Shown here piece after piece: positions 5,966 to 35,746 of a DNA stretch of 41,240 bases. The DNA is taken from IMG/VR virus record IMGVR_UViG_2541047725_000010; one strand, 5' to 3'. The notes under the pieces were generated by a model. It saw nothing but the letters and a program-made list of their open reading frames with translations. It made no database searches and was not told the DNA's origin. The stretch comes from a virus. Taxonomy: Duplodnaviria > Heunggongvirae > Uroviricota > Caudoviricetes. The first letter of the stretch is position 1. Every line of letters begins with the position of its first letter. The translations under genes were made by a program, and so were the position numbers.

Positions 5966-5982
5966 ATTACCTTTATGGTAAT
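5966..5982. promoter_or_regulatory. Operator-like palindrome ATTACC-TTTAT-GGTAAT
   Basis: Perfect inverted half-sites 5 bp apart; one of at least 11 copies of the same motif in intergenic regions. Confidence 0.5.
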
Positions 5983-6018
5983 TTGCAAAACGTGCTGGAT
6001 AGCAAACAAATTATTTGA

Positions 6019-6038
6019 TACTGTATAAATATACAGTT
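6019..6038 (+). promoter_or_regulatory. LexA (SOS) box overlapping the -10 region upstream of gene 6058-6315
   Basis: TACTGTATAAATATACAGTT: CTGT-N8-ACAG, 18/20 to the TACTGTATATATATACAGTA consensus; 20 bp before the GGAG RBS and ATG at 6058. Confidence 0.7.
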
Positions 6039-6057
6039 ATTGCATGGAGAAGATAAG

Positions 6058-6315
6058 ATGCAGCGGTATCACTATCCACTGGAAGACGGATTTACCGAAA
6101 GGATTCACACGCCGGGAGGCGTCAGGTCACTGGTGGAGGGATCGCACTTGATGAAATTACTCCGGGATCTCGATAAGGATGGATTTAATGTCGATGGCCC
6201 ACTTGCCGAACTGACTGCACTGATTAACTACGTCACCAGCTCACAGATGTCTATGCGGGATCTGCAAACACATCTCGACTATTGTGCCGAACAATTACGA
6301 AAACAAACCAGATAA
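6058..6315 (+). CDS. Small protein paralogous to the antirepressor C-terminal domain (SOS-controlled)
   Basis: 85 aa from ATG 6058 (track ORF 6040-6315); aligns by eye at about 50% identity with residues about 160-240 of the adjacent antirepressor (e.g. LMKLLRDLDKDGFNVDGPLAELT vs LMNLLNQLQEDGHDVSGAAAELT). Confidence 0.6.
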   Translation: MQRYHYPLEDGFTERIHTPGGVRSLVEGSHLMKLLRDLDKDGFNVDGPLAELTALINYVTSSQMSMRDLQTHLDYCAEQLRKQTR

Positions 6316-6345
6316 GGTTTGCAATTACCAAGTGGAGTGCTTATA

Positions 6346-6362
6346 TTTACCTTTGAGGTAAA
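6346..6362. promoter_or_regulatory. Operator-like palindrome TTTACC-TTTGA-GGTAAA
   Basis: Same motif family as 5966-5982. Confidence 0.45.
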
Positions 6363-6455
6363 TTTACATCGCACTCCTCTTGTGCCATAGTAATCGGGCA
6401 CTGGCAAAATCCGGTGCCGGGATTGGTCTCCCGGATTACTACAGAGGCACATATG

Positions 6456-6475
6456 CCGCATAAGCGGTTTTTTTT
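6456..6475 (+). terminator. Putative intrinsic terminator after the LexA-controlled small gene
   Basis: Short GC stem CCGC-ataa-GCGG followed by an 8-T run; sits inside a 314-bp hairpin-rich noncoding gap. Confidence 0.4.
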
Positions 6476-6629
6476 ATGTGTAAAGCGCACCTATTCTATG
6501 GTGGGCTGTGTGGGGGCACCGAAAGGTGCGCCGGGTTCCTTTGTAGCCGGTAAGACCAACTCTGCACAGTTCACCACCATCTGATTGGTCTCAGCGGTGG
6601 TGATTAACCTAACTACAAAGGTGATCGCC

Positions 6630-7322
6630 ATGAATACCAAACCTTCCATCTTTTCCTTTGAGTCATCCTGCCAGATCCGTATGTTCATGATTGACGGAGA
6701 ACCTTGGTTTGTCACCAAAGATGTGTGCAATGCTTTGAATATTGATGTTACACAAGCGAGAAAACTTGATAAAAAAGGCTGGAACAAAAAGGGGCTGTAT
6801 TCAATACAGACCCCTGGTGGAATACAAGAACTATCCATCGTTTCAGAATCAGGTCTCTACATCCTTATTCTGCGTTGCAAAGAGGCAATGACTGAGGGAA
6901 CGAGAGCATTCAGATTTCTTGAATGGGTTACAGGCGAGGTTCTTCCTCAGATCCGCCGCACCGGAAGTTACATTAAAAACTCGCTACCGCAGGAAGAACG
7001 CATAAAGATGGTTGCCGACCAGGTAGCCAACGCCACGGCGTCAGCAGTAATGCAGGCGATGAAGATAGAGAACAAAACCTACAACGCCCCGCTGAAGCCC
7101 GGCTACCGCAGCCTGATTCATTCCCCGTCTGGTGTTCTCGGCCTGACGGAGAACTCACTGCTGATGAATCTGCTGAACCAGTTACAGGAAGACGGGCACG
7201 ACGTATCGGGCGCGGCGGCGGAGCTGACCACCATGTTCTGCTACATCGTCGGTGTGAGCAAATGCCTGCGTGATATCCAGACGCACGCGGAGTACATCAA
7301 CGACAAAGCAGGGTTCTTCTGA
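6630..7322 (+). CDS. Phage antirepressor, BRO-N N-terminal domain with KilA-C/Ant-type C-terminal domain
   Basis: 230 aa from ATG 6630 (AAGGTG RBS); N-terminal FSFESSCQIRMFMIDGEPWFVTKDVCNALNI is a BRO-N signature (from memory). Confidence 0.75.
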   Translation: MNTKPSIFSFESSCQIRMFMIDGEPWFVTKDVCNALNIDVTQARKLDKKGWNKKGLYSIQTPGGIQELSIVSESGLYILILRCKEAMTEGTRAFRFLEWVTGEVLPQIRRTGSYIKNSLPQEERIKMVADQVANATASAVMQAMKIENKTYNAPLKPGYRSLIHSPSGVLGLTENSLLMNLLNQLQEDGHDVSGAAAELTTMFCYIVGVSKCLRDIQTHAEYINDKAGFF

Positions 7323-7393
7323 CGGGCGGCGGCACAGGGATGTGCCTTTAAATAATTCTGTACAGATTGCAGACTGGGGGTGAATAGCGTACT

Positions 7394-7410
7394 ATTACCT
7401 TAAAGGTAAA
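7394..7410. promoter_or_regulatory. Operator-like palindrome ATTACC-TTAAA-GGTAAA
   Basis: 41 bp upstream of the ATG at 7452. Confidence 0.45.
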
Positions 7411-7451
7411 CCTGTTTTTATTTTATACCTGTAACTTACCGGAGATTAAAG

Positions 7452-7778
7452 ATGACAAAACTTGGATTCGTGATGAGAGGTCCGGTAAGAAGCGGAACTC
7501 ATGCAAAGCGTAGCAAGAGTCGTATTTTTACTGGTAAGGTTGTAGCACGTAAATCAGCTATTGGCTCGTTCAATAGTGAAAATGCGGCATTGCGCCATAT
7601 TTTTATCAGCACAAAGCCAAGAGCATCCGCTGATGTGCATACAATGACTATTCCTATCACAAAGAATATAAAGCGGATAAAAAAGCTCTCATCTGCAGAA
7701 TCAAAAGAGATATCTTTCCGCCAGCTTAACTCATTAGAAACGCATATGAAGGAAGAGGAATTCGATGTTTTTGAGTGA
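7452..7778 (+). CDS. Basic hypothetical protein, upstream partner of a toxin-like gene
   Basis: 108 aa; strong GGAG RBS; Lys/Arg-rich N-terminus; no family recognised; 14-bp overlap with the next gene. Confidence 0.5.
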   Translation: MTKLGFVMRGPVRSGTHAKRSKSRIFTGKVVARKSAIGSFNSENAALRHIFISTKPRASADVHTMTIPITKNIKRIKKLSSAESKEISFRQLNSLETHMKEEEFDVFE

Positions 7779-8277
7779 GTATAGCGGGAAGGTTATACCT
7801 ACTGGTGAGTTTAAAACTGATGACTTTCTGATTTCGCTAAAAGATGCTTTTAAACAACACTGGCGTCATGGTCATCATCCTGATCTGGGAAAAGATACTC
7901 TTTTTGAAAGACCAGACGAAGTATTAGGTTTCCATCTCAGAAAGGTTCATGTCAATATTGGTGAATATGCATCATATTCATACTCATGTACTGAACAGTG
8001 TTGGGATGAGTGGTCATATGGATTGATTGATGAACAAGGAAATTACAGGCCAAAACCAACCAGTAACGCATATCTCATATATGCAGTCAATGAAATAAGA
8101 GATGCAGCCTTACTAGCTTATTGGGACCCGCCCGCACACACCAAAGCTAACGCAAAAGTTTGGATGGATTCCGTATTGAATTTCACAAAATTATTTCATG
8201 AACGAACGAATACAGCTCCACTTAGTAGAAATGTTTATCCGTGGGATTATTCGTACAAATCCAAAAAGCCTGCATAG
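7765..8277 (+). CDS. YafO-like toxin-family protein (putative ribosome-dependent mRNA interferase)
   Basis: 170 aa; AAGGAAGAGG RBS inside the upstream gene; by-eye similarity to E. coli YafO recalled from memory (G[KR]D-x-L[FY], RKVHVNI vs ERVAHIHL, AYLIYAV vs AHLVYCQ); unverified. Confidence 0.45.
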   Translation: MFLSEYSGKVIPTGEFKTDDFLISLKDAFKQHWRHGHHPDLGKDTLFERPDEVLGFHLRKVHVNIGEYASYSYSCTEQCWDEWSYGLIDEQGNYRPKPTSNAYLIYAVNEIRDAALLAYWDPPAHTKANAKVWMDSVLNFTKLFHERTNTAPLSRNVYPWDYSYKSKKPA

Positions 8278-8358
8278 TAGTTTTTTATGGACGAAACAAA
8301 AGTCAGTGCTACACTCATTGACGCCACATTGAGGTGGATTATAGATGGAAATTTCACA

Positions 8359-8520
8359 ATGAAAAAAGCATTTGCTGCACTGTTCGTTTTGTTGTCTCTG
8401 GTAGCTTCAACTCAGGCCTTTGCCGGTCGTTGTCAGCACGACAGCGATACTGCCGCTGACGGCTCCCGCTGCGGTGGGCGTTCTGCGGATTCCCGCCCGG
8501 GCGGCGGTGGCATTCGTTAA
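8359..8520 (+). CDS. Small secreted Cys-containing peptide
   Basis: 53 aa from ATG 8359 (track ORF starts 8287); Sec signal MKKAFAALFVLLSLVASTQAFA then a Gly/Arg/Asp-rich mature peptide of about 31 aa with two Cys. Confidence 0.4.
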   Translation: MKKAFAALFVLLSLVASTQAFAGRCQHDSDTAADGSRCGGRSADSRPGGGGIR

Positions 8521-8525
8521 AAACA

Positions 8526-8543
8526 AGGCCGCGAAAGCGGCCT
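8526..8543 (-). terminator. Intrinsic terminator downstream of the minus-strand gene 8552-8848
   Basis: 7-bp GC stem AGGCCGC-gaaa-GCGGCCT; on the minus strand followed by TGTTTTT; the GTGACATGTCAC palindrome lies immediately beside it. Confidence 0.6.
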
Positions 8544-8555
8544 GTGACATGTCAC
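8544..8555. repeat. 12-bp perfect palindrome GTGACATGTCAC, copy 1
   Basis: Overlaps the TGA stop of gene 8552-8848; identical copy at 28897-28908. Confidence 0.6.
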
Positions 8556-8848
8556 GTCCCTTTTCTGAATGATAGCCATTCGAAAAATGATGACATTCCA
8601 CCGCAGACAATAGCAAAGATGATCCCACCAAAGAAGAGAAGGCCAGCCTGCCACCACTCCCACCGCCATACATCCACAGCGCCAACCATACCAACAATCG
8701 CTCCAACAAATGGAATATAGCTCACGATGAAAGCAATGGGGGCTGCAATTATCCAGTGCAATCCCCACCATGATTCAAGCCCAGCCATAATTGCTGCCAA
8801 CTGAAAAAGACCAACGACGATATAAACAATGAATCCTATAGCTTGCAT
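8552..8848 (-). CDS. Small integral membrane protein
   Basis: 98 aa, three hydrophobic helices, Trp-rich; follows the last internal virion protein gene. Confidence 0.55.
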   Translation of the reverse strand: MQAIGFIVYIVVGLFQLAAIMAGLESWWGLHWIIAAPIAFIVSYIPFVGAIVGMVGAVDVWRWEWWQAGLLFFGGIIFAIVCGGMSSFFEWLSFRKGT

Positions 8849-8860
8849 GTAGTCACCTAT

Positions 8861-9034
8861 TTACCCAGTAAAAATAAGAGGCCTCCCCTCAATAAGGCTT
8901 GCAACAAGAACTACTCCCTGCACAACAAAGATGAACCAGCAAATAGCTTGAGTCTGAGGGTTAAGAAAATATTTGTAGCGGTCAATAAATAACAATCCAC
9001 CAGAAATTATCACACTCAAAATAATTAAAAACAC
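8861..9034 (-). CDS. Possible small membrane protein (below ORF-track threshold, GTG start)
   Basis: 58 codons found by hand, almost wholly hydrophobic; no clear RBS; coordinates may be off by a base or two. Confidence 0.25.
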   Translation of the reverse strand: MFLIILSVIISGGLLFIDRYKYFLNPQTQAICWFIFVVQGVVLVASLIEGRPLIFTG

Positions 9035-9043
9035 AACACTTCC

Positions 9044-11518
9044 TTATTGCGGAGTGACATCCTGAGGTCGCCACCAGTATGTCTGGTTAAACTCTTTCTT
9101 CGAACGTTGCTCCATTTTACGCAAATAGCCTAGTGAAAAATACTCCTGCATCTGATTAAAGATCATGTGATCGAGAGCCGCCTTCAAGTACCAGAGATTC
9201 GCACCTGGCATCAAACCTTTCCCCAGCTTCACCAGATCACCACCAGTCTGCTCACTCTTCCCTTCCACAGCATTTAACGGTATGCCCTGAGCAATCTTCA
9301 CTACGTCATCAACCAGACCAGCTACCGGGCCAAGCATCGACGCCAGCGCGCCGCTTCCGTACCTAGTGTGATCTGACAATAAAAAGTCACCATAAAGGCC
9401 AAGACCACCACCTTTCAGTAGAGCACCAAGCCAGAATTTTGCGGCATCTTCTCCTGTCATCTCTCGAGGATTACGACCAGACGCAAGGTCGTTAAGTTGT
9501 TGCGACAAAGCGCCAAGAATGGTCGTACTGGCAATAAACGTCGCAATATATGCCGCACGCCCACCAGCAGACGGCATACCCATAGCGCGTGACCAGTGAC
9601 GCATAACAACCGAGATAGGGAACGATTTAAACAGGAAAACACTTCTCGTTAATTCACCTTTCCATGTTCCACGCTGAATACCAGAACCGGTTATCAGTTG
9701 CTCACGTGCTCCCGGTGTAATAACAGCCATATCAACTTCTTCAGTTACGGCACCGAGCAGTTTACGCATTGCCTCAAATTTCACGCGTTCAGGCTCACCA
9801 AGATGTTTAACTGCTGAATCAGGGATACGCATAATGCTTTCCGGTGTCAGCATCGTATTATTACCGTTCCCCCAGTCCTCCTGTTGCGCCAGCTTCCATA
9901 CGCTCCAGTCTGTGTCAGTAATCCCTTTGCTTTTCAGGATACGAAAATCAGAGTCATCGAGGCTACGAAGGTCTGGTGTTCGTGACACTACTTCTCCCAG
10001 GCTTCCCATCATGGTTACGCCATAGGCGCGCTTGTGCGCATCTGACCATGCTGTAAGCCCACTGGCACGCATTACCGCCGTTGCCGCCCAACGAGACACT
10101 GACGGCCCCATATTATCCATCGCCCAGCGGTTAACGCTGCCAAGTAGAGATTCCATCGCCAGACCAGCGCGGCGCGCCCGCGCAAGTTCTGTACGGTTCG
10201 TTGGGTCCATAGCTTCAAGCTGGTTGCGGAATAACTGGTTCATTGGAAGGTTGGTAACCTTCGCAGACAGATACATGGTTCCAAGATCAGAGAACGATGA
10301 CAGCAACGCGGATCCGAGTCTGCTGGCAACCAGCCAGTTGCGGATATTGTCAGACCATCGCGCGATGTGCGGATTCGCTACAGGCTGTGTCTTTCCGGAA
10401 ATAAAGTTGTACAGATTCTCTGTGTTGTTCGCTAGCCGCTCGACTTTACCGGTTTTACTCGGGTTAGCGGTTGCCGTTTCTGCCTTCACCTGATCAAGAA
10501 GAGAGCGGAAAACATGATCGGGGTTTGGGCCATATGTTTCCACCAGTGCAATATCTTTACTGATACCTTCCAGGTGACCGACCATGATTTCCCATAGAGA
10601 GCGATCGCCATAAAGTTGCTGATATTGCAGATAGGAATCTGCATCTTTGAAATGTATCTGTCGTGATGCATTACCACGGTTAGCACGTGCGCCGGAAATT
10701 CGCATTCCGGTATCAGTAAGCTTATTCAGCCCACCAGTAGCGATCGTGTTATAAGCCTCTCCAAGAAATGCAGACAACTCGGCATCGTTCATCAGTTGTC
10801 CATCGGCTCGGATATAATATTTGCGATCCAGCTTACCTATAACATCGCTAACCCACTTATCCTTTGATACCGCCCCAACCTTTTCCATAGAATGATGTTG
10901 AGGGATCCCCCAGTTTTCGAGATAGCCAATGTCCCCACCAGCATCATTAAACCGGCGGCGCAGCAGCTCTGTAACTTCTCTCCACGCCTTAGCACCTTTT
11001 CTTGCTTTAGCATTGCCAGTATTTTGCCCCCGCATTTCATATACCAAGTCACGTACGCCCGCTTCATCTTCAAACAGACCAAAAAAGCGAGGATCAACTG
11101 CTTCGAATGCCTCCTGCAATTGACTCAATGCATAATCACGGGTGGCTTTTGTTCTGGATTCAACAGAGAGGAAATTAGATTTACCGTCTGCATTAAAAGC
11201 TATAGTACGGTTAAGAGCGCCAAGTTTCCCATCAGCCCCTTGATAGCTATTGATAAATTTATCCAATCTCTGACGCGCGGCTATAGTGAGAGCCACACGA
11301 CGTTTCTTTAATGCCGCTTCTCGCTGTAATTCTTCAGATGCCAATTGTGCTGCTCGATATAGCCGCTCTGATTCGGAAAGTTGTCGCCACGACATCGGGT
11401 CATCACGAGCAATGGAGCGCATATTTCGATAAATGCGGTCTTCAATGTTCTGTATTTCTCGCGCCGTTAACGTGCGCTGCGCCGCCTGCTGGACCGCTTG
11501 TATACATTCCTGTCTCAT
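9044..11518 (-). CDS. Large virion internal/ejection protein (T7 gp16-like position)
   Basis: 824 aa; GAGAGG RBS; last of the large proteins following the tail-tube genes. Confidence 0.55.
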   Translation of the reverse strand: MRQECIQAVQQAAQRTLTAREIQNIEDRIYRNMRSIARDDPMSWRQLSESERLYRAAQLASEELQREAALKKRRVALTIAARQRLDKFINSYQGADGKLGALNRTIAFNADGKSNFLSVESRTKATRDYALSQLQEAFEAVDPRFFGLFEDEAGVRDLVYEMRGQNTGNAKARKGAKAWREVTELLRRRFNDAGGDIGYLENWGIPQHHSMEKVGAVSKDKWVSDVIGKLDRKYYIRADGQLMNDAELSAFLGEAYNTIATGGLNKLTDTGMRISGARANRGNASRQIHFKDADSYLQYQQLYGDRSLWEIMVGHLEGISKDIALVETYGPNPDHVFRSLLDQVKAETATANPSKTGKVERLANNTENLYNFISGKTQPVANPHIARWSDNIRNWLVASRLGSALLSSFSDLGTMYLSAKVTNLPMNQLFRNQLEAMDPTNRTELARARRAGLAMESLLGSVNRWAMDNMGPSVSRWAATAVMRASGLTAWSDAHKRAYGVTMMGSLGEVVSRTPDLRSLDDSDFRILKSKGITDTDWSVWKLAQQEDWGNGNNTMLTPESIMRIPDSAVKHLGEPERVKFEAMRKLLGAVTEEVDMAVITPGAREQLITGSGIQRGTWKGELTRSVFLFKSFPISVVMRHWSRAMGMPSAGGRAAYIATFIASTTILGALSQQLNDLASGRNPREMTGEDAAKFWLGALLKGGGLGLYGDFLLSDHTRYGSGALASMLGPVAGLVDDVVKIAQGIPLNAVEGKSEQTGGDLVKLGKGLMPGANLWYLKAALDHMIFNQMQEYFSLGYLRKMEQRSKKEFNQTYWWRPQDVTPQ

Positions 11519-11523
11519 TTAAT

Positions 11524-19316: not shown

Positions 19317-19924
19317 CAGGACAACCTCGCAATGGTAAACTCATCAACCGGTGGCTGTGGTTCCTGTGATTCATTCTGGCTATGCGAGCCAGCACTAAGA
19401 ATCACGCGATTGTACATATTGAGGGCAAACGTACCGAGGTCTGCATTCCCAGTCAGCGCCATGTTAATAGCTGCCGCAAGACGCCAGGCCAACGCCTCCA
19501 TAAAAATGGCATCAAACATGTTCACATCTGTAACGCGAGAGACATACTTGAGCCATGCCTGAGGCTGGTCTGTGTAGATCAACTTTCCTGTTCCGTTGGT
19601 GTCTGCACCAACTTCGTACTGAACGCGCATTGATGCTGTTGGATTGCGTACACCAGGAAGCATAATTTCAGTAATGCGCAGACAATCTGACGGGTACTGG
19701 TACGCATATTCCCAGTCAGGCGGTGGATTGCTCGTATCTGCAAGCGCCACGCGTTTGGTAGCAAAGTTCCAGTCAAAATCAGAAAGCACAGCATCACGGC
19801 AGGCCTCAAAGTGCAGCGAACATTCCCCCGCTTCCTTGCTGGCTTCCGTCAGGCTGTTAATGCTGCGGCTGTTGCCAATATTGGACAGCGCACGATTGCA
19901 GATCTCTACTACAGAGGCCATCAC
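19316..19924 (-). CDS. Tail tubular protein A-like (adaptor)
   Basis: 202 aa; N-terminus EICNRALSNIGNSRSINSL resembles T7 gp11-type N-termini (from memory). Confidence 0.5.
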   Translation of the reverse strand: MMASVVEICNRALSNIGNSRSINSLTEASKEAGECSLHFEACRDAVLSDFDWNFATKRVALADTSNPPPDWEYAYQYPSDCLRITEIMLPGVRNPTASMRVQYEVGADTNGTGKLIYTDQPQAWLKYVSRVTDVNMFDAIFMEALAWRLAAAINMALTGNADLGTFALNMYNRVILSAGSHSQNESQEPQPPVDEFTIARLS

Positions 19925-20639: not shown

Positions 20640-20640
20640 C

Positions 20641-24801: not shown

Positions 24802-24815
24802 TTCAATGACTCCGG

Positions 24816-25022
24816 TTACTGACCAAGCAGCGTTTTACCGCTGGTATTAGCGGTTGATGTGTCGCCCTGAGAACCGGTAAGCAGCGTAGAACTACGACCA
24901 GCAGCAGCGCGACGGCGACGAGTTTCTTCGTCGCGGGCATCAACAACGGCGGCATCCTGCTCCTGTGGTGCTGCCTGAACTTCTGGTGTTGCAGGCACTG
25001 ATGGTGAGCTACCCATGCACAT
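24816..25022 (-). CDS. Small hydrophilic protein upstream of portal
   Basis: 68 aa; GGAG RBS; its initiation region CGGAGTCATTGA-N-ATG is nearly identical to that of the portal gene. Confidence 0.4.
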   Translation of the reverse strand: MCMGSSPSVPATPEVQAAPQEQDAAVVDARDEETRRRRAAAGRSSTLLTGSQGDTSTANTSGKTLLGQ

Positions 25023-25111: not shown

Positions 25112-25128
25112 ATTACCTTTCAGGTAAC
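25112..25128. promoter_or_regulatory. Operator-like palindrome ATTACC-TTTCA-GGTAAC
   Basis: Upstream of the head operon; a TTGACA hexamer lies at 25091-25096. Confidence 0.45.
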
Positions 25129-25449
25129 CAAAGAGTTCATTCCGGTTACTAACCTGACTGGCTTGTCGTTAAATTGAACAGGTGGAGTGAGCTTTTATTT
25201 TGAGCAGTACGGCGTATGGCACATGCGCCGATAGCGGTCTGGATACGTTTAAGGGGCACCCTCCCTTGCTCGGGCAAACGAACCAGGTAGCCGGAATGTG
25301 CAAGTCGAGCGGTTTTATTCCGCGCACGGGGATTCACCATCCCGGCGATTCGGTGTGACGCCTCGGAAGAGACGAGGGTACAACGATGAGAGCATTTATG
25401 GAGCCGCGACAAAGTGTGGCGCCTTAACAGGCTAAGTGCTCTCAGCGTT

Positions 25450-25526
25450 GTGGCATTAGCTCAGTTGGACAGAGCAACCGCCTTCTAAGCGGTTGGTCGC
25501 AGGTTCGAATCCTGCATGCCACGCCA
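25450..25526 (+). tRNA. tRNA-Arg, anticodon UCU (phage-encoded)
   Basis: Hand-folded cloverleaf: 7-bp acceptor GTGGCAT/ATGCCAC, D-stem GCTC/GAGC, anticodon stem ACCGC/GCGGT with loop CTTCTAA, T-stem GCAGG/CCTGC with GGTTCGAATCC, discriminator G and encoded CCA. Confidence 0.85.
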
Positions 25527-25569
25527 GAATCACGCCTAAGGACCGTGATGCCAGAAGTTCCAGGTGCTT

Positions 25570-25611
25570 GGCGGTGATGCTTTCCCTTGAAGGACTATCA
25601 CCGCCCTTTTT
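25570..25611 (+). terminator. Hairpin plus T-run downstream of the tRNA
   Basis: GGCGGTGAT...ATCACCGCC 9-bp stem with large loop, then CTTTTTA. Confidence 0.35.
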
Positions 25612-25689
25612 ACAGCAGGACGCCATTGCGATGACTTCATGCTGTAAACCAGTACAGCCACGGAAGGCATAACTCATTGCTTCCAGTTC

Positions 25690-25712
25690 GCCCACTTCAG
25701 TGGGCTTTTTTT
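25690..25712 (+). terminator. Intrinsic terminator
   Basis: GCCCAC-TTCA-GTGGGC followed by TTTTTTT. Confidence 0.6.
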
Positions 25713-25725
25713 CTAGTGACTACTG

Positions 25726-25742
25726 ATTACCTTATGGGTAAT
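25726..25742. promoter_or_regulatory. Operator-like palindrome ATTACC-TTATG-GGTAAT overlapping a candidate promoter
   Basis: 32 bp upstream of ATG 25774; TAATAT -10-like hexamer at 25739-25744. Confidence 0.5.
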
Positions 25743-25773
25743 ATACTGCAAACTAATAACACAAGGCCGTGAC

Positions 25774-26664
25774 ATGCTTGACTTCATCCGTGACATTTAC
25801 TCCTCTTTCCGCCAAGCATCTCTTGAGCGGGTGAAAAGCCCGTTCCTTGGGGCATTTGTTTTTTCCTGGCTTTGCTTTAATTGGCAGATGTTAGCAATTC
25901 TATTTTTTAGTTCTAAGGATATTGAAAAGCGCCTTGCTATTATTAATGGCTCTTTCGGCATCGTCAGCTTTTTAATTGCGCCAATATGCACTACAGCATT
26001 GATAGTTATCCTTTTACCGCAAATTAATAAATTGATTACAATAATACAAGATAAACCTAACTCAGACACAATTGAAATGAGCCTTGCATCTAAAATAAAG
26101 ATCGCCGAACTGCAGCAACTATTAGCAGAAAATGAAGCAAGAAAGAAACTTGCTGATAAAAAAGAAGAACGCTTCATTGAAGAGAATATTATTTCAATAA
26201 AAAAAGACCATGAAAAAGCAATAGATAACCTTAAAGACAAAGAAAGTAAAATCTCAAATCTCACGGACACAATAACTGAACTTCAGAGCAAACTGGTTAA
26301 AGCTGAGGCCACTCTCAAAGTTGAACAGGAGTCAAGATCCCAAGTGCAGAATGAATTGATTATTGAAAAAGAGAACAAGCGGAAATTAGAAGACAACATT
26401 CTGCACCTTAATTTAAGTTTAAAAAAAAACCAATCAGAATTGGCCATTGCAAAAGAAGCCTATGATAATACCTTGATGGCTTATAATGAACTTAACACAA
26501 CATTAAAAAAAGCAGAAAGCTCAATAATAAACTTCAATGCTAACTTTCCTTTTTTAACTGACATAAATAACAGCACCCCAAATACATACTTAAAAATAAA
26601 TAAAAATGCATGGGAGCATTTAGTTAGTTTAAATTTAAGTCTAAAGGAGAAAATACAAAAATAA
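25774..26664 (+). CDS. Membrane-anchored coiled-coil protein (cargo gene, function unknown)
   Basis: 296 aa; two N-terminal TM helices then about 200 aa of heptad-like Lys/Glu/Leu-rich sequence; very AT-rich; opposite strand to the flanking late genes. Confidence 0.6.
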   Translation: MLDFIRDIYSSFRQASLERVKSPFLGAFVFSWLCFNWQMLAILFFSSKDIEKRLAIINGSFGIVSFLIAPICTTALIVILLPQINKLITIIQDKPNSDTIEMSLASKIKIAELQQLLAENEARKKLADKKEERFIEENIISIKKDHEKAIDNLKDKESKISNLTDTITELQSKLVKAEATLKVEQESRSQVQNELIIEKENKRKLEDNILHLNLSLKKNQSELAIAKEAYDNTLMAYNELNTTLKKAESSIINFNANFPFLTDINNSTPNTYLKINKNAWEHLVSLNLSLKEKIQK

Positions 26665-26687
26665 ATAACCAATCCACTATGGCATAT

Positions 26688-28157: not shown

Positions 28158-28786
28158 TGATTACCATCCTGACGTTCTTTGAGTCGCTTCCTGGCTGCCG
28201 CTATGCGATCAGCAATTGTCACATTCACATTAACATCCAGGCGCTCTTTGAACGCGTTAACGTCGACGTGCTTACCGATGAGCTCGAGGTTTTTCACCTT
28301 GTCGGGCCATTTCACCTTCTTCAGGATATGCTCGACATCCTCAACAGAGAGATCCGCCTCGCCATTCTCTTTTTGCAGAGAAGCCTGGGTCGTCTTGATG
28401 GTAGCGATATCCATAGCACTGAGAGAGGTACGCCAGACCTTCGGCCATTCAGCGATCGGCTTCATCCCGCCGTCATCGTTCAGGATATCCAGCACGTCCA
28501 TCTGGTCGATTTCCACCAGGCGCATGAGAACGTAATCAGCACTGACGCGCATTCGTTTGTTGCGCTCCTCCATCAACTCGGCAATCCGTTTTTGAATGCG
28601 TTCATCGCGCATCATGACACTGGCTTTAACTGCCGCTGTATTTGGGGAGAATCCTGCGTTAATCGCTGCCTGAGTCTGGTTTTCAGGCGTTTTGATGTAT
28701 GACTGGCAATAAGCCTCCTGCATTGCTGTTAGTGGCTTAAATTGCGTTGATTTGCGTTTATAGGTTTTAGGTTCAGCAGGCATCAT
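28154..28786 (-). CDS. Terminase small subunit
   Basis: Start placed at ATG 28786 (GGTGG RBS), about 210 aa; the track start 28864 would put a terminator hairpin inside the ORF. Confidence 0.65.
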   Translation of the reverse strand: MMPAEPKTYKRKSTQFKPLTAMQEAYCQSYIKTPENQTQAAINAGFSPNTAAVKASVMMRDERIQKRIAELMEERNKRMRVSADYVLMRLVEIDQMDVLDILNDDGGMKPIAEWPKVWRTSLSAMDIATIKTTQASLQKENGEADLSVEDVEHILKKVKWPDKVKNLELIGKHVDVNAFKERLDVNVNVTIADRIAAARKRLKERQDGNQ

Positions 28787-28828
28787 AACCACCGTGGTAA
28801 TAGTTACCGTTGTGGTAATAGTACCATG

Positions 28829-28855
28829 CAAAATAAAGCCGCCATAGTTGGCGGC
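28829..28855 (-). terminator. Putative terminator in the late-operon leader
   Basis: On the minus strand GCCGCC-aactat-GGCGGC followed by TTTATTTTG. Confidence 0.45.
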
Positions 28856-28896
28856 AGTATTCAAAACCCATCAAATTCATCATGCATAACCCACTC

Positions 28897-28908
28897 GTGA
28901 CATGTCAC
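28897..28908. repeat. 12-bp perfect palindrome GTGACATGTCAC, copy 2
   Basis: Overlaps the TGA stop of gene 28905-29252 in the same register as copy 1; just upstream of the late-operon leader. Confidence 0.6.
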
Positions 28909-29252
28909 AATATTAATTTCGTTTCATGCCAGCCTTTAGTCACCCAGCATTGCGAGTCACCATTACACGGGCATGAATTCACAGGAACTCTCTCGCCGCA
29001 CTTACCGCAACATTTTCTGCTGATCGATTTTATACGCCCGAGCACGCGTGCATCATCCTGGCGGATCAGTAACGCTATATACTCACCAAATTCGTAAGGC
29101 GCACGCCCGGGGCGACGCGTGGCACAGTTACGCTCCAGCATTTCAATTTCCTGAGCATCAAGCACAATTTCCAGCTTACGCACACCAGATGCAGCTTGTC
29201 TGGCTCTCTGAGCGGCTTTGCGCTCTGCGGGGGATTTAGCCACGAATCGCAC
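28905..29252 (-). CDS. Zinc-ribbon protein, possible late-gene regulator
   Basis: 115 aa; basic N-terminus; C-terminal Cys cluster CCGKCG...CPCNGDSQC; last early gene before the terminase operon; role inferred from position only. Confidence 0.4.
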   Translation of the reverse strand: MRFVAKSPAERKAAQRARQAASGVRKLEIVLDAQEIEMLERNCATRRPGRAPYEFGEYIALLIRQDDARVLGRIKSISRKCCGKCGERVPVNSCPCNGDSQCWVTKGWHETKLIL

Positions 29253-29357
29253 TCCACGCCAGATTGATTAATGACTCCCAGGCAATATAAACCCGGATAC
29301 CAGCAGCCAGGCCGAAACCAATCACCATGGCATAAAGCAGAGCGTTGCACTTGTTCA

Positions 29358-30017: not shown

Positions 30018-30027
30018 TTGTTAGTCC

Positions 30028-30783: not shown

Positions 30784-30784
30784 C

Positions 30785-31681
30785 TCACTCTCCTTTGATG
30801 CGAATGCCAGCAAGCCAGTTTCTTATGCCGATATATTCAGCGTTCCTGAAACCGCTTTTTACATATATAAATGGCAAGCGAAGATTGTGACCATTGGCTG
30901 CCAGGTAGTCTTTACAACCCTGTTCGGTGAAACAGCAGGTAACGAATTCATCAATATCTTTCACAGCAACGCGCCGCCATTTTTCTGGTGGCTCTCGAAA
31001 GTTTTCGTGAAGTAGTTCGAGACGACGACTTTGGCGTTTATTGGCTTCATTGCCATCTTCATCAACCCAGACAATCCGGTCATAGTCATAATCAGCATCA
31101 ACAACGATTTCGCGCTTTTGATACACACAAAACATAGGGTCTGACGTTATTCGATTATCCTGTGTTCGAATATTTTCACCGATGATGCCAAACGAATCTG
31201 GTGCAGATTTTGTCTGCAACTCTTCGATACGTTCAGCCATCGCAGCACACTCTTCAAAGTTGCTTAATGCTTTTCGCTCCCATTCGGCGCATTGTTTTCC
31301 AAGCTCTGCAATCAGCTTGTCTTTGCCTTCCAGCTCAACACGCAGCTTCCCTACCGTTAACGCAATCTCCTCGTTCTCCTGGTCACGGCGTTTGATGTAT
31401 TGCTGGTTTCTTTCCAGCTCATCCAGCAGCGCCAAGACGGTAGCTGGATTTGCTGCGGCGATGAATTCAGCATTGGCCTGCTGTTCTATTTGGAAATCTT
31501 CATCGAAACCGCTTTCAGGATGCGCTCCTTCAATTCTGCAAATGGGAATATATCCAGCAGCCTCGCGATGAATTAGTGCATCATCACCATCAAATCGGCC
31601 ATCTCCATATTCGAGCGACCACTCGCCACACGTTGCTTTTTCTGCCTTAGCACGCAGTGCCTGATAGTCAATCTTGCTCAC
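30785..31681 (-). CDS. Ead/Ea22-like prophage protein
   Basis: GTG start 31681 overlapping the upstream stop (GTGA); central coiled coil; N-terminal region resembles Ea22-type proteins (from memory). Confidence 0.45.
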   Translation of the reverse strand: MSKIDYQALRAKAEKATCGEWSLEYGDGRFDGDDALIHREAAGYIPICRIEGAHPESGFDEDFQIEQQANAEFIAAANPATVLALLDELERNQQYIKRRDQENEEIALTVGKLRVELEGKDKLIAELGKQCAEWERKALSNFEECAAMAERIEELQTKSAPDSFGIIGENIRTQDNRITSDPMFCVYQKREIVVDADYDYDRIVWVDEDGNEANKRQSRRLELLHENFREPPEKWRRVAVKDIDEFVTCCFTEQGCKDYLAANGHNLRLPFIYVKSGFRNAEYIGIRNWLAGIRIKGE

Positions 31682-32154
31682 TGGTTGCCTCCTTTGCGAA
31701 GCTGCTCCGCACAATGCAGCAGGGCGTCCGTCGCTTCTTTCACCGTAACGATGTCGCCATCGTCCAGCCCGGCAACCGTCGCGTCCTTAACGAACACCGA
31801 GCAAAGGTCATTAAACGCCTGCGCCCGTACTTCAGCCAAGAAAGCGTCGGTGGCTGGCATATTTCCTGTTGCCTTCATGGCATCCAAAATAACCAGAACG
31901 CCATCTCTCCCAACCGCCTCACAGATAACCTCAGTGTTGTCGCCAACAACATCGCAGAATGCCTGAACTGCTTTACGAGCCAGCTCATTCTCCGCCGCCA
32001 GCGCATTAGCACGCACCAGTTGCACTTCCAGTTGCGTTGCCAAATCGCTGATCAGCTTTGCCACACTGCGCATATCAACGGCACCACATTCTGCTTTCAG
32101 TTCCGAAGCCATCTCATGCCCGGCGGCAACTAACCCTTTGATATTACTTTCCAT
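31678..32154 (-). CDS. Hypothetical early protein
   Basis: 158 aa, Ala-rich, acidic. Confidence 0.45.
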   Translation of the reverse strand: MESNIKGLVAAGHEMASELKAECGAVDMRSVAKLISDLATQLEVQLVRANALAAENELARKAVQAFCDVVGDNTEVICEAVGRDGVLVILDAMKATGNMPATDAFLAEVRAQAFNDLCSVFVKDATVAGLDDGDIVTVKEATDALLHCAEQLRKGGNQ

Positions 32155-32215
32155 CCTTACCCTCGCTTATCCACATAACTTATTGATTACATTGATAACT
32201 AAAAAGATCGTCGAT

Positions 32216-32560
32216 TCAGAACTCTTCGATGTTCCAGCCACCACCTGCTTTCTTTGGCTTAACCGTTACCCCGATGATTCGGAACGGATACTGATCTGCG
32301 GCGACTTTGGTTTTCACCCTGGCGTCGTCGGTCCAGAAACCTTTCACTTCGTGCAGTTCCATCTCTCCGGTGGCGAGCATCACAGCGAAATCTGGCGTAT
32401 AGAACGTGTTGTCAGCTAACCGCAGCTTGATACCCTCAAATCGATACCAGACGATTTCTCCTGCACGTTTACGCATCTCAAGGTGCTGACAATACGCAGA
32501 TTCTGTTTTGTTCATCTGGCCTGTTTTGAGTCGACCAAGAGCCTGTATCTGTTTTCTCAT
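32216..32560 (-). CDS. DUF1064-like protein (putative nuclease/resolvase-like)
   Basis: 114 aa; AGEIVWYRFEGIKLRL...YTPDFAV...HEVKG pattern recalled for DUF1064; two operator-like palindromes in its leader. Confidence 0.5.
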   Translation of the reverse strand: MRKQIQALGRLKTGQMNKTESAYCQHLEMRKRAGEIVWYRFEGIKLRLADNTFYTPDFAVMLATGEMELHEVKGFWTDDARVKTKVAADQYPFRIIGVTVKPKKAGGGWNIEEF

Positions 32561-32562
32561 GA

Positions 32563-32579
32563 TTTACCCCTGAGGTAAT
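32563..32579. promoter_or_regulatory. Operator-like palindrome TTTACC-CCTGA-GGTAAT overlapping the RBS of gene 32216-32560
   Basis: Same motif family; 3 bp from the start codon. Confidence 0.45.
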
Positions 32580-32624
32580 TAAAAACCACATAAGACACGA
32601 GATCAATAGATTTTAGAATATTTT

Positions 32625-32641
32625 ATTACCTAATAGGTAAT
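32625..32641. promoter_or_regulatory. Operator-like palindrome ATTACC-TAATA-GGTAAT
   Basis: Perfect half-sites; between the P-like gene terminator and gene 32216-32560. Confidence 0.5.
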
Positions 32642-32677
32642 TATTGAGACGTAAAAAAATGCGCTATCGCGCTGGTA

Positions 32678-33478
32678 TTACTTGATAAATCCTGCCGCCT
32701 TTCCCCGCCTGTATTCCTCCATCAGCCACTGCGCCGGTGTTATTCCCCCCAAGGTGGCGGCGTTAGGCATGCACCCGAAACTTCGCCCTGGCGGGTGGTA
32801 AACGTCTCTCCCTGTGTCCGGAGGCGTACTCATGGGTTCTGGCTTTGCCTGTATGCTGATCACCGGATCGGGTATCTGCTGTCCGGAAGCCACCTTTTTC
32901 GCCCAATCATCGAGCAGCCTACGCGCGTGTTTCTCAACCTCAATCTCGCTAAGCTGGCGCTGATACATTGCACGGCGGGTATCACATACGACCCAATACA
33001 TAACCGGATGTCGCCACGGGAATCTTTCGGGACCACCAGGATATAAACTTTTTTCCTTGCTGTACCGGTGAAACTCCGCCATCACATCGTCAATGGTGAC
33101 GCCAAGAACCATCTTGCTGTCTTTGCACCACTTGATAAATTGCCCTGGCGACGGCCAGAACGGAGATTCGCTGGCGCGGGCGTGGCGCATACCAGCAGAA
33201 ACCTGTTCACGGGTTCGGATCCCCCCTTCGGCAAACGCAGCAATCCACTGCTGTTTTGCAGCAACTTCCTGCTCTGGCGTCTTCAGGTTGGTTACCACTG
33301 CCGCCGGAAACAGTTGTTTCAGCTGTTTGAAAAGGGCATCAACAAGCCTCTCTGCTGACATGTTCACCACGTTGTCATTGTTGGTGTACTGATGCTCATA
33401 ACCTGACATGCGAGAAAGGGCTTCTCCGTCACGGTTTTGTATCGCGGTAAAAACGTTGTTCACAAGAAATCCTCCCAT
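32678..33478 (-). CDS. Replication protein P-like (helicase loader)
   Basis: 266 aa; QQWIAAFAEGGIRTREQVSAGMRHARASESPFWPSPGQFIKWCKD closely parallels lambda P as recalled. Confidence 0.75.
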   Translation of the reverse strand: MGGFLVNNVFTAIQNRDGEALSRMSGYEHQYTNNDNVVNMSAERLVDALFKQLKQLFPAAVVTNLKTPEQEVAAKQQWIAAFAEGGIRTREQVSAGMRHARASESPFWPSPGQFIKWCKDSKMVLGVTIDDVMAEFHRYSKEKSLYPGGPERFPWRHPVMYWVVCDTRRAMYQRQLSEIEVEKHARRLLDDWAKKVASGQQIPDPVISIQAKPEPMSTPPDTGRDVYHPPGRSFGCMPNAATLGGITPAQWLMEEYRRGKAAGFIK

Positions 33479-34275
33479 GCTTCAGGGCTGTTCCAGTGCG
33501 GAACGTTGTTATCAGGTAATGTTGATTGCTTCTGTCTGCTAATCTGCAGCCGCCTTGCCAGCTTCTGCTCCCACTGTGCCTGATGGTATGCCTTACCCTC
33601 AGCCATCCAGTAAATTCTGAACTCTGCAAGTTCCTGTGCCGTTGGCAGACTGTCTAGGTAGATCCCCTGCAATGAGCTTTTCCGAAGAAAATCATCTGAT
33701 GGTTGCCATTGTTCATGCATGACAAATTTGCCTAATTGCCCTGGCCCACCAGGAGGAACAAAGTTATTCATCACGGCGTTGTTTGCGCCGGGGTCATGAG
33801 GCACAGAATCCCCGGTTTTTGTCCTGCTCTCCCTCTCTTGGTTAAATGACTGGTTATATGACTGGTTCTGGATCCCGTTTTTGGGATCATTCAATATCCC
33901 GTTTTTGGGATCATTCAACATCCCGTTTTTGGGTATATTCCCGTTTTCGGTAACATTACCGTTTTCGGGTTCATTGCCCCCCTCCCGGTTGCCTTTAATG
34001 TTCCCGTTTTTGGTTATATTAAGAGAGAAAACCCGCACTCTTTTTGTCGCTCCCTTTCTCTCTCCGGTATCTGAAATAAGCCCCATTTTCATGAGCGATA
34101 TAAGCCCGGCCTGCACGGTTTTTTTATTCAGGCAAGTGTCTTTAACGAGGCGTTCTATGCTGGGGTAGCAGAGGTTATATTCATCGGCTCTGTCAGCCAT
34201 CGAGAGCAGTATGAGCTTTAATGACGAGCTACCTGGATCTGTCTCCCAGGCCCAATCTGTTGCATGTCTGCTCAT
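33460..34275 (-). CDS. Replication initiator O-like (replisome organiser) containing the origin iterons
   Basis: 271 aa; N-terminal winged-helix-like region resembles the lambda O N-terminus; central repetitive peptide encoded by DNA iterons. Confidence 0.65.
   Translation of the reverse strand: MSRHATDWAWETDPGSSSLKLILLSMADRADEYNLCYPSIERLVKDTCLNKKTVQAGLISLMKMGLISDTGERKGATKRVRVFSLNITKNGNIKGNREGGNEPENGNVTENGNIPKNGMLNDPKNGILNDPKNGIQNQSYNQSFNQERESRTKTGDSVPHDPGANNAVMNNFVPPGGPGQLGKFVMHEQWQPSDDFLRKSSLQGIYLDSLPTAQELAEFRIYWMAEGKAYHQAQWEQKLARRLQISRQKQSTLPDNNVPHWNSPEAWEDFL
33872..34017. repeat. Origin-of-replication iterons (6 copies of CCCGTTTT(T/C)GGG-like core)
   Basis: Cores at about 33874, 33898, 33922, 33940, 33958 and 34003; first two units are perfect 24-bp repeats; inside the O-like gene as in lambda ori. 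Confidence 0.65.
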
Positions 34276-34290
34276 GATTAATCTCCGCTA

Positions 34291-34491
34291 TCAGCTTGAA
34301 TGTTGTGGGGAGGAATTAATCATGATCTGCTTAATCTCTGCCCTGATACGACGGTTTGATTCCATGGTGCACTCAACACAGTGTCCGTTGTAAACCCAGC
34401 GTTCACTGTCATGTCCGTGCTTACATGTTTTTCCGGTGTAGTAGCGTTTAAGTCCGCGCTTTGCGGCATCAATACGTGTAATGATTTCCAT
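34291..34491 (-). CDS. Small Cys/His-rich protein at the cII position
   Basis: Start placed at ATG 34491 (track ORF begins with TTG at 34554); motif CKHGH...CVEC; function unknown. Confidence 0.4.
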   Translation of the reverse strand: MEIITRIDAAKRGLKRYYTGKTCKHGHDSERWVYNGHCVECTMESNRRIRAEIKQIMINSSPQHSS

Positions 34492-34570
34492 GGTAAGCCC
34501 TGTTATTAGTATTGGGATTACGGTCATTTTGTGCTGACACAAAAAAAAGATCAACCAGATTTGGTTTTTT

Positions 34571-34587
34571 ATTACCTTTGAGGTGCG
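34571..34587. promoter_or_regulatory. Degenerate operator-like site ATTACC-TTTGA-GGTGCG
   Basis: One perfect and one degenerate half-site upstream of gene 34291-34554. Confidence 0.3.
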
Positions 34588-34641
34588 AATAGATATGAAA
34601 AGACCGCCGGGTGGCGGTCTACAGAGGGTTGTGGCTGGATA

Positions 34642-34872
34642 TCATGAGTAGAAGAAGTATGCCAGTTCTGCTTTTGAGCGCAGCCATTGTCTTGTTTTAC
34701 AGGCTTTAAAAAGCCCATTCATCAATACTTTACCTGGCATTTTGCGCTTACCTGTTAAGTGAGTCTGGATATAGTGACTCGTCGTTCCGGCTTCCTGTGC
34801 GAAGGCTTCACGCTCATCCGGAGTAAGTGCAAGCCAGTGCTTTTTGAAATCGAAATGTCCGTTATCGCTCAT
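34642..34872 (-). CDS. Cro-like HTH transcriptional regulator
   Basis: 76 aa; first gene of the minus-strand early operon, divergent from the repressor-like gene; HTH-like segment. Confidence 0.55.
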   Translation of the reverse strand: MSDNGHFDFKKHWLALTPDEREAFAQEAGTTSHYIQTHLTGKRKMPGKVLMNGLFKACKTRQWLRSKAELAYFFYS

Positions 34873-34955
34873 AGCTATTGCCTGATATTTATTTCAGATA
34901 ATAAATATTCACCCATAAGGTAACAAAAATCAAGGATAGTTACCTATGGGGTGCA

Positions 34956-34972
34956 TTTACCTGTTGGGTAAT
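34956..34972. promoter_or_regulatory. Operator-like palindrome TTTACC-TGTTG-GGTAAT in the divergent immunity region
   Basis: Within the 154-bp gap between the cro-like and repressor-like genes; a second inverted pair GGTAAC...GTTACC lies at 34919-34944. Confidence 0.5.
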
Positions 34973-35026
34973 ATTGCTTTAAATTGAATCATCTACTGAT
35001 TCATATACGAGGCGATTTTCCAGAAA

Positions 35027-35611
35027 ATGAAAAGTATCCAGGACGTCCGCAGGCAAAATCTCAACGACTTGATCGACCGTGAATTCAATGGTGTTCAGAC
35101 GCGGATGGCAGAAAAACTTGGAACTCAGGCAAATCTGGTAAACCGCTGGGCTCTTGGCAAGAAGGTTATCGGCGACCAGGTTGCGCGAAAAATTGAAGCT
35201 GCCGCCAATAAACCCCGTAACTGGCTTGATATCGATCGCTCGCTTTCTCAGGAAGGTTTTCAGCCTGTCGGCCCAAGCGACATTGGTCAGCTGGCGGCTC
35301 ACAACCTGGAACGCTGGATGAGCGAAAGCCGCGACCTTTCAACACAGGGAAAACTTCACCGCGCATCCGGCGTCGCCCAGGTGACAATCAGCCGCCTGTT
35401 AAACAATGAGGTCAGCGTTTCCATTTCCACCCTGGAGAATGTTGCATCCGCATTCGGGCGTCACGGCTATGAATTACTGATTCACCCGCACGACCCTGCG
35501 ACCATCAACTATGACCGCTCGCGCTACGCATTGTTACCCGAAACCGAGAAAGCAAAGATCGAAAGTTACATTGAATTTGTCATCAACCAGAACGAAAAAA
35601 ACAAACAATAA
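35027..35611 (+). CDS. Repressor-like regulator with two HTH domains, no recognisable S24 peptidase domain
   Basis: 194 aa; two HTH-like segments (GVQTRMAEKLGTQANLVNRW and ASGVAQVTISRLLNNEVSVS); divergent from the cro-like gene. Confidence 0.6.
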   Translation: MKSIQDVRRQNLNDLIDREFNGVQTRMAEKLGTQANLVNRWALGKKVIGDQVARKIEAAANKPRNWLDIDRSLSQEGFQPVGPSDIGQLAAHNLERWMSESRDLSTQGKLHRASGVAQVTISRLLNNEVSVSISTLENVASAFGRHGYELLIHPHDPATINYDRSRYALLPETEKAKIESYIEFVINQNEKNKQ

Positions 35612-35631
35612 AATCATATTTTTCAGTAAGT

Positions 35632-35656
35632 AAGCCGCCTTCTGGCGGCTTTTTTA
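35632..35656 (+). terminator. Intrinsic terminator after the repressor-like gene
   Basis: AAGCCGCC-ttct-GGCGGCTT followed by a T-run. Confidence 0.7.
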
Positions 35657-35667
35657 TTGTCTACACA

Positions 35668-35684
35668 ATTACCTTAAGGGTAAT
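35668..35684. promoter_or_regulatory. Operator-like palindrome ATTACC-TTAAG-GGTAAT
   Basis: Perfect half-sites just downstream of the terminator. Confidence 0.5.
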
Positions 35685-35702
35685 TTTTTTAACTCATATC
35701 TA

Positions 35703-35746
35703 TTGACACCAAACCAAATACGCATAATCATTACCTCAACGGTAAC
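35703..35746 (+). promoter_or_regulatory. Candidate early promoter (TTGACA ... CATAAT) with operator ATTACC-TCAAC-GGTAAC at its start region
   Basis: TTGACA at 35703-35708, CATAAT at 35723-35728 (short spacer of about 14 bp), palindrome at 35730-35746; drives the plus-strand operon from 35765. Confidence 0.4.

Follow-up and report, generated by a model that had tools for sequence, protein, structure and literature searches.

A dispersed set of palindromic sites as the probable operators of the main repressor in a phiV10/ε15-like prophage

The two described systems that stand closest to the one considered here are those of Salmonella phage ε15, whose genome paper is reportedly that of Kropinski et al. 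(2007, Virology 369:234), and of Salmonella phage SPC32H, the Rep-Ant antirepression switch of which is said to have been worked out by Kim & Ryu (2013, J Virol) and Kim et al. (2016, PNAS). The DNA to be compared with them is a stretch of 41,240 nucleotides (IMG/VR record IMGVR_UViG_2541047725_000010; "the window" refers to the whole of it), which is placed by its sequence among the Uetakevirus prophages of phiV10/ε15 type and is 93-98% identical to phiV10 across most of its length. The subject is a 17-bp palindrome, A-TTACC-nnWnn-GGTAA-T in its symmetrised logo, that recurs along this prophage; it is very probably the operator of the main repressor, Rep, set at the start of every transcription unit. 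The RefSeq record of ε15 (NC_004775) already carries seven protein_bind features ('repressor', lysogeny): ahead of terS and of the head operon, within the tail-fibre/gp19 region, at PL (three) and at the second early promoter (one). Each of the seven coincides with a match to TTACC-N5-GGTAA. These annotated sites are, as far as can be told, predictions. The dispersed site set is already known, through its annotation in ε15 and the structural characterisation of the repressor family; since the ε15 record labels the same sites, the present set is a rediscovery and not a new system. The literature, searched for the motif string, returned only unrelated primer matches.

With ε15 the prophage shares the palindrome itself (ATTACC-N5-GGTAAT), its dispersed positions (terS, head operon, tail fibre/ant, PL, second early promoter) and the gene order. 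It differs in that its Rep is only 42% identical to the homologous ε15 repressor, gp38, in having further sites, one at an ant2 module of the IsrK/C4/Bro-N type and others at two cargo cassettes, and in lacking a lysis-cassette site. With SPC32H it shares a homologous Rep, a highly similar antirepressor, Ant (87% identity), a LexA box before ant, and the same motif at the same positions; the features of an SPC32H-type switch are present in its sequence, namely a Rep that matches over both domains and a small Ant, with its LexA box, beside the tail-fibre gene. The differences from SPC32H are a Rep C-terminal domain that is only ~39% identical and a second antirepressor, of the Bro-N type and under IsrK/C4-like RNA control, that SPC32H lacks. 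What appears to be unrecorded is modest: a 62-bp geometry in which paired sites bracket a promoter, operators at lineage-specific cargo and at the IsrK/C4/ant2 module, a half-site that stays unchanged across strongly diverged Reps, and the contrast with S24-type relatives in which the sites are confined to OL and OR.

The recurrence of the 17-bp palindrome in the window is real. WTTACC-N5-GGTAAW has eight exact matches, against 0.00 in 100 dinucleotide-preserving shuffles, and the core TTACC-N5-GGTAA is found in 11 exact and three one-mismatch copies where 0.64 are expected, a total of 14 that no shuffle reaches. When all hyphenated 5+5 palindromes with gaps of 0-11 are counted de novo, TTACC with a gap of 5 is the top class (11 copies); the runners-up have three or four copies, and both four-copy classes are sub-patterns of TTACC/gap 5. 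On a curated gene map, the 11 perfect sites all lie in the non-coding 6.4% of the window (binomial p = 7.8e-14), and the sole coding match is a one-mismatch copy at 2942, the number predicted by chance. The claims of the initial annotation, made from the letters alone, that the same inverted repeat occurs at 11 or more sites and never inside coding sequence, accordingly stand against the shuffled and coding backgrounds that it had proposed as a check. Its 11 coordinates all hold, except that 25112-25128 and 35730-35746 end in C and not in W; the site that it called degenerate, 34571-34587, is real and carries two mismatches (its right half is GGTGC); its list was incomplete, lacking 28803-28819, 28785-28801, 34908-34924 and 34939-34955. 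Nine of the 15 sites in the window fall outside the rep-cro, post-cro and PL regions. The central base of the spacer is A or T in 98% of sites, and the rest of the spacer is variable. (Some sites are also named below by their core start: 5967, 6347, 7395, 25727 and 32564 denote the sites beginning at 5966, 6346, 7394, 25726 and 32563.)

A search of related phages, likewise proposed at the outset, finds the motif at matching map positions in all five genomes compared. phiV10, ε15, SPC32H, Enterobacter phage Tyrion and Klebsiella phage BUCT711 have 8-11 perfect and 3-8 one-mismatch copies each, a few of the latter being chance matches inside genes. The phiV10 record carries no annotation of these sites, and the ε15 record is without labels for the rep-cro sites and for the proximal partner (35969) of the 62-bp pair at the second early promoter. 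The motif is also present in three prophages with more divergent Reps, sampled over ~16-21 kb, in which the early-region and terS site classes recur. Sodalis phage phiSG1, whose portal protein is 57% identical, has neither Rep nor the motif. Across the window and these eight related phage and prophage sequences the half-sites are invariant and the spacers variable, and the distances between neighbouring sites are quantised: 62 bp occurs 13 times (63 bp once), 17-18 bp 12 times and 48 bp five times.

The immunity region is laid out as in lambda, with rep and cro divergent, three operators between them and an operator set at PL. In the rep-cro gap, the OR-like operator nearest rep (34956..34972) is perfect, TTTACCTGTTGGGTAAT; the middle one (34939..34955), 17 bp from it, is degenerate with two mismatches, TTACCTATGGGGTGC; and the one nearest cro (34908..34924; one mismatch) overlaps the -35 element of the predicted PR (TTGTTA-17-TATTAT, 34926..34898, minus strand). 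The spacings are 31 and 17 bp, and the same triple, at 17 and 30/31 bp, is present in ε15 and SPC32H. Beyond cro, the two-mismatch site at 34571..34587 is located 15 bp past the cro terminator, ahead of the replication genes; its ortholog is a one-mismatch copy in phiV10, Tyrion and BUCT711. On the other side of rep, the predicted PL (TTGACA-17-AATCAT, 35703-35731; promoter scan, 10/12 match) has a -10 element that ends on the first T of the PL-proximal operator (35730..35746), which covers ~-8 to +9, and the PL-distal operator (35668..35684) is placed 62 bp upstream of the proximal one, 17 bp past the rep terminator. The second early ('nin-like') promoter, Pnin, on the minus strand, repeats this design: its predicted TTGATC-17-TTTAAT ends on the first T of the proximal operator (32563..32579), which also overlaps the ribosome-binding site (RBS) of a DUF1064 gene (ATG at 32560), and a distal operator (32625..32641) lies 62 bp away. 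The composite module O-N19-CTATTGAnA-N17-(-10)-O is kept at PL and Pnin of the window, at Pnin of ε15 and at PL and Pnin of BUCT711, a count that leaves out ε15 PL, the row for which was aligned on the wrong site pair. The window ends exactly at the int start codon, and a further site is found just beyond it, ~45 bp upstream of that codon (L089 35594); its conserved 'mismatch' makes GGTATACT, a -10-like box, and this variant (GGTATA or the reverse-complement equivalent) recurs in the window's parent genome and in five other phage genomes. No sigma-70 promoter could be defined for the rep and int sites.

That the dispersed sites serve a phage regulator acting at many promoters, plausibly the product of 35027-35611, was also proposed at the outset, and is supported by homology to a crystallised repressor, by identity to a repressor of known effect, by the sites between rep and cro and by the ε15 annotation. 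The gene in question, rep (35027..35611, plus strand), encodes a protein with an N-terminal helix-turn-helix (HTH) and a C-terminal HTH_3-like/tetramerisation/Ant-binding domain. It matches the SPC32H Repressor (PDB 5D50) over residues 1-190 with E = 4e-42, and PDB 5D4Z (residues 92-198 of SPC32H Rep) over residues 89-190 with E = 4e-20; Pfam places HTH_3 at 106-147 and a weak YdaS-like HTH at 21-61, and has no Peptidase_S24 match in Rep. phiV10 and phage ZX5 have repressors that are 100% identical to Rep. Overexpression of the ZX5 protein left no free phage and lowered endolysin transcripts by 99.99% and holin transcripts by 99.97% (PMC9782041). SPC32H Rep is described in a secondary source (PMC9638917) as a tetramer, pairs of whose DNA-binding domains bind palindromic sites and which tetrameric Ant disassembles; the Rep tetramerisation domain is assigned in another (PMC9986798) to a type linked to DNA looping. 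Between the window and ε15, SPC32H or BUCT711, Rep identity is 42-44% overall, 54-56% in the N-terminal domain and 39-43% in the C-terminal domain. The putative recognition helix, N36-L-V-N-R-W41, is invariant in the five phage Reps, and in the wider family only N36, R40 and W41 are.

The product of the divergent gene at 34642..34872 (minus strand) is a small cro-like HTH protein (phrog_35 'transcriptional repressor', E = 5.6e-13). Its helix, AGTTSHYIQ.HLT, is invariant across the genus; it is encoded in 35 Uetakevirus-type records, in the same phage groups as rep; and between the window and ε15 it is 76% identical, versus 42% for Rep. As judged from sequence, it probably binds the same sites as Rep.

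Away from the immunity region the sites stand before late genes, antirepressor genes and cargo. Transcription units, as counted by strand switches and terminators, number 13, and all 13 have a site within ~110 bp of their start. Several of the sites overlap a -10 element (PL, Pnin, 7395, 25727) or an RBS (the DUF1064 gene, terS), as the initial annotation had said. Ahead of terS there is a tandem: a perfect operator (28803..28819) between the terminator at 28838-28855 and terS, and, 18 bp from it, a one-mismatch operator (28785..28801) that adjoins the terS ATG at 28783 and contains its GGTGG RBS. The pair falls within the longest open reading frame (ORF) and within terS as annotated in phiV10 and by PGAP, yet it lies upstream of the conserved start MPAEPK (ATG 28783), with which terS of ε15, SPC32H and Tyrion all begin. 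The terS start is thus probably over-extended in the phiV10 and PGAP annotations, to judge by these alignments, and phiV10-type annotations would be corrected. The 26-27 extra residues of the annotated protein (28784-28864) include both palindromes in translation (TITTTVTITTVV). The operator of the head/structural operon (25112..25128) is placed upstream of this minus-strand operon, whose first gene starts at 25022; it has an ortholog in all six phage genomes, and in ε15 the corresponding site (2931-2947) carries the label 'repressor'. ε15 and phiV10 also have a site before the lysis cassette; one was looked for in the window, where the oac region is missing, and is not there.

Two operators belong to cargo. 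That at 25726..25742, which only this prophage lineage has, lies over a TAATAT/TATACT -10-like box, 21 bp past the terminator at 25690-25705 and 32 bp before the gene at 25774-26664. The 296-residue product of that gene (phrog_13369) has no Pfam match, and the gene stands in the place of phiV10 gene 03; the cassette is found in 31 of 5426 complete E. coli genomes, one copy in each. The other, at 7394..7410, fronts the cassette at 7452-8520, and the predicted promoter TTGCAG-17-TACTAT ends on its first T, the same proximal geometry as at PL, without the distal partner. This cassette is absent from phiV10 and has three genes: orf108, a YafO-family toxin-like gene (the family name comes from PGAP, the Pfam match being below cut-off) and a small membrane protein gene. 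With a Rep-type operator in front, it is a candidate toxin-antitoxin or defence module. The prediction that follows for both sets of cargo genes, behind 7395 and 25727, is that they would be silent in lysogens and switched on at induction.

The remaining two sites are those of the antirepressor genes. The operator at 5966..5982 occupies a divergent control region, 77 bp from the ATG of ant and 105 bp from that of the tail-fibre gene, between back-to-back -35-like boxes (read by eye) that face ant and the tail-fibre/lysis operon; its geometry is identical in SPC32H, and it is labelled 'repressor' in ε15 at 19895-19911. The ant gene (6058..6315, plus strand; phrog_450) encodes the SPC32H-type antirepressor, and just upstream of it is a perfect LexA box, CTGTATAAATATACAG (6021..6036), which matches the SOS-box consensus in full (taCTGTATAAATATACAGtt) and stands ~20 bp ahead of the start codon at 6058. 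LexA-controlled Ant is cited for SPC32H in PMC7380047. The LexA box ahead of ant implies SOS induction by way of an antirepressor and not by repressor cleavage. Ant has diverged little from its SPC32H counterpart, but the Rep C-terminal domain, the reported Ant target, retains only ~39% identity; this unequal divergence could bear on cross-induction between prophages.

The operator at 6346..6362 directly adjoins the -35 element TTTACA of a predicted promoter (TTTACA-17-CATAGT, 6363-6391), the implied start of which coincides with the 5' end, at 6398, of an IsrK-like Hfq-binding small RNA (6398-6474, plus strand; Rfam RF01394, 73.7 bits, above the gathering score). This RNA and a C4 antisense RNA (6494-6581, plus strand; Rfam RF01695, 78.6 bits, also above gathering score) form the leader of ant2 (6630..7322, plus strand; phrog_130/450; start as given by PGAP), which encodes a Bro-N domain (Pfam E = 1.9e-13) fused to an Ant-like C-terminal domain that is 43% identical to Ant across the Ant domain. 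The phiV10 record labels the IsrK/C4 stretch merely as 'similar to SF0880' with a terminator. Overexpression of ORF4 of phage ZX5, a Bro-N-type antirepressor whose homology to ant2 is assumed here, reduces lysogeny (PMC9782041).

These elements suggest the following mechanism. Rep would sterically block RNA polymerase at the proximal sites. As a tetramer (by homology to SPC32H) with two DNA-binding units, it might occupy a tandem pair or bridge a 62-bp pair, the second unit, on the tandem or 62-bp partner, reinforcing occupancy; 62 bp is ~5.9 helical turns, which places both sites on the same face of the helix. Past its terminator, the terS tandem is the only candidate for a roadblock and could act as one. 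Cleavage of LexA would release Ant, and Ant would strip Rep from all sites at once, with no cleavage of the repressor itself; the Bro-N protein Ant2 perhaps also lifts repression. Binding by Rep, bridging or looping by the tetramer and repression of each unit are what we infer from the arrangement.

Several considerations weigh against assigning the sites to Rep in this way. Occupancy by Rep is deduced from homology and placement. The phyletic patterns of Rep and the cro-like protein are inseparable: the two co-occur in Uetakevirus-type records, each with its own distant outlier(s), and since both recognition helices are invariant, comparative data do not assign the dispersed sites to one or the other, occupancy by both being what one would naturally expect. 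No covariation of helix and operator was found within the Rep family: Rep relatives down to 52% identity, among them the helix variants NLVSRW and NLISRW, keep TTACC-N5-GGTAA. A 62-bp loop is very short, and bridging is a guess from geometry. A search for sigma-70 promoters gave no convincing one at the terS and head-operon sites, where the mode of action may be occlusion, a roadblock or another.

The last of these points, together with the slower divergence of the cro-like protein and its invariant HTH, is what favours a different binder: the cro-like protein, a gp49/p55-like regulator (28905-29243), AlpA or PerC would be the main binder of the dispersed sites and might bring about lytic shut-off or late activation in concert, Rep would act at the immunity region alone, and the promoter-poor late sites would resemble activator-dependent late promoters. 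We consider this improbable overall, though it may hold at the terS and head-operon sites. The 7395 and 32564 sites share the PL sequence and its overlap with -10 and +1, a repressive and not an activating position; the ε15 annotation credits the sites to the repressor; Rep overexpression silences the lysis genes in ZX5; and Cro acting on the same sites would complement, not replace, control by Rep. Host transcription factors, or module exchange that uses the sites as linkers, might instead account for the motif without any role for a phage repressor. In comparison with phiV10, mosaic breakpoints do fall 15 and 62 bp from two window-specific sites, and phages of at least four enterobacterial host genera carry the same motif, but breakpoints near intergenic regions are expected anyway, the available host flanks hold no matches, and the motif tracks the Rep/Cro module, being absent from phiSG1, which has no Rep, and having relatives exactly at OL and OR of distant phages that share the repressor N-terminal domain. 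This account is very improbable.

The palindromes could, finally, act in RNA, as hairpins for termination, processing or translational control: each can fold a 5-8-bp hairpin, several follow terminators or overlap an RBS, and some of the intergenic regions concerned bear annotated RNase III sites in ε15. The hairpins are weak, however (-3.3 to -5.6 kcal/mol, with no U tract); the invariant half-sites, in the window and its eight relatives, show no compensatory changes; and, because the 6347 site lies upstream of the IsrK-implied start and the distal sites upstream of their -35 elements, these would not be transcribed from the adjacent promoter. Of the alternatives this is the one that we find hardest to credit, and operators of Rep remain the preferred reading of the dispersed sites.

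A more far-reaching version of the preferred reading can be put forward only tentatively, and on balance is doubtful. Rep would be a genome-wide gatekeeper that closes the early, late, lysis, int and cargo units and both antirepressor modules by way of 62-bp and 17-18-bp pairs bridged by its tetramer; with >13 operators to maintain in each genome, the operator code would have become frozen, and diversification of immunity would have moved to the interface of the Rep C-terminal domain with Ant. In keeping with such an idea, neither TTACC nor the helix pattern N-x-x-x-R-W changes among phages from at least four enterobacterial host genera and a Serratia prophage, with Rep identity down to 42%. 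If it were true, ε15, phiV10 and Klebsiella phages would be expected to cross-repress one another.

More distant relatives place the dispersal in perspective. A Rep-type N-terminal domain is present in CI of Pseudomonas phage PseuP_224 (E = 3e-12) and in that of Psychrobacter phage pOW20-A (E = 2e-10), at 38-39% identity, joined in each to a longer C-terminal part of another kind that looks LexA/S24-like. PseuP_224 (43 kb) carries TTACC-N4-GGTAA and pOW20-A (41 kb) ATACC-N5-GGTAT, only at OL and OR, with four sites in each phage, and both phages encode Q-like antiterminators. The related palindromes at OL and OR tie the TACC half-site to the repressor/Cro module, and their restriction to OL and OR indicates that dispersal is a derived trait of the ε15-like phages.

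Repressors with many operators are familiar from other phages. The C1 repressor of P1 has many dispersed operators, one of which, Op51, belongs to the c4-icd-ant operon of immI. P1 is a plasmid prophage, and its operators are asymmetric 17-mers. The likeness would be one of design: one repressor, scattered operators and, among them, one that gates a C4-led antirepressor operon, the C4 match in the window being the 78.6-bit one. A control module of the P1 immI/Gifsy-1 isrK type may here be lodged in an ε15-like phage; the comparison with immI covers the C4 and IsrK RNAs upstream of ant2 and the site that adjoins the -35 element. The operator sequences of P1 and the window are unrelated, as are C1 and Rep. 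The 'stoperators' bound by gp71 of mycobacteriophage L5 and the conserved inverted repeats of the Streptomyces phage φC31 are likewise repressor sites in large numbers genome-wide, through which silencing is direct. L5 stoperators are asymmetric 13-mers in one orientation, located inside transcribed regions, and stop elongation, whereas the sites of the window are palindromic and intergenic, are mostly at promoters, several of them over -35 or -10 boxes, and belong with unrelated proteins. From lambda the prophage differs in the genome-wide dispersal of its sites, in a Rep that lacks the S24 self-cleavage domain, and in induction by antirepressor. The contrast drawn in the initial annotation with lambdoid phages was apt as regards dispersed regulation; the phage itself is an ε15-like podovirus (Uetakevirus) and not strictly lambdoid. 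The arrangement shows a group of temperate podoviruses, with ε15, phiV10 and SPC32H in it along with numerous prophages of E. coli, Salmonella and Klebsiella, to be wired unlike lambda: a single antirepressor-controlled repressor appears at every promoter instead of heading a cascade.

The prophage is integrated at the 3' end of guaA, the same location that is reported for phage ZX5, with an attR core, ATTGAGTGGGAATGATT, at 1164-1180, and an identical copy of it is present in E. coli EBJ003. The host flank (1-1180) contains a glycine-zipper/TraT-like gene and a DUF5384 gene up to the attR core. Operators as markers of mosaic junctions were considered and set aside as too weak a pattern, only 2-3 of nine breakpoints being within 100 bp of a site. 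A tRNA-Arg(TCT) gene is located at 25450-25526 on the plus strand; the ORF that overlaps it on the opposite strand (25456-25695, p04 in phiV10) is probably spurious, and the 300 bp upstream of the tRNA gene (25150-25450) are non-coding and may be a structured leader. Within the DnaT-like replication gene, 33872-34024 holds six direct repeats, (A/T)TCCCGTTTT(T/C)GG, spaced at 18-24 bp with 45 bp before the last copy, which are probably origin iterons.

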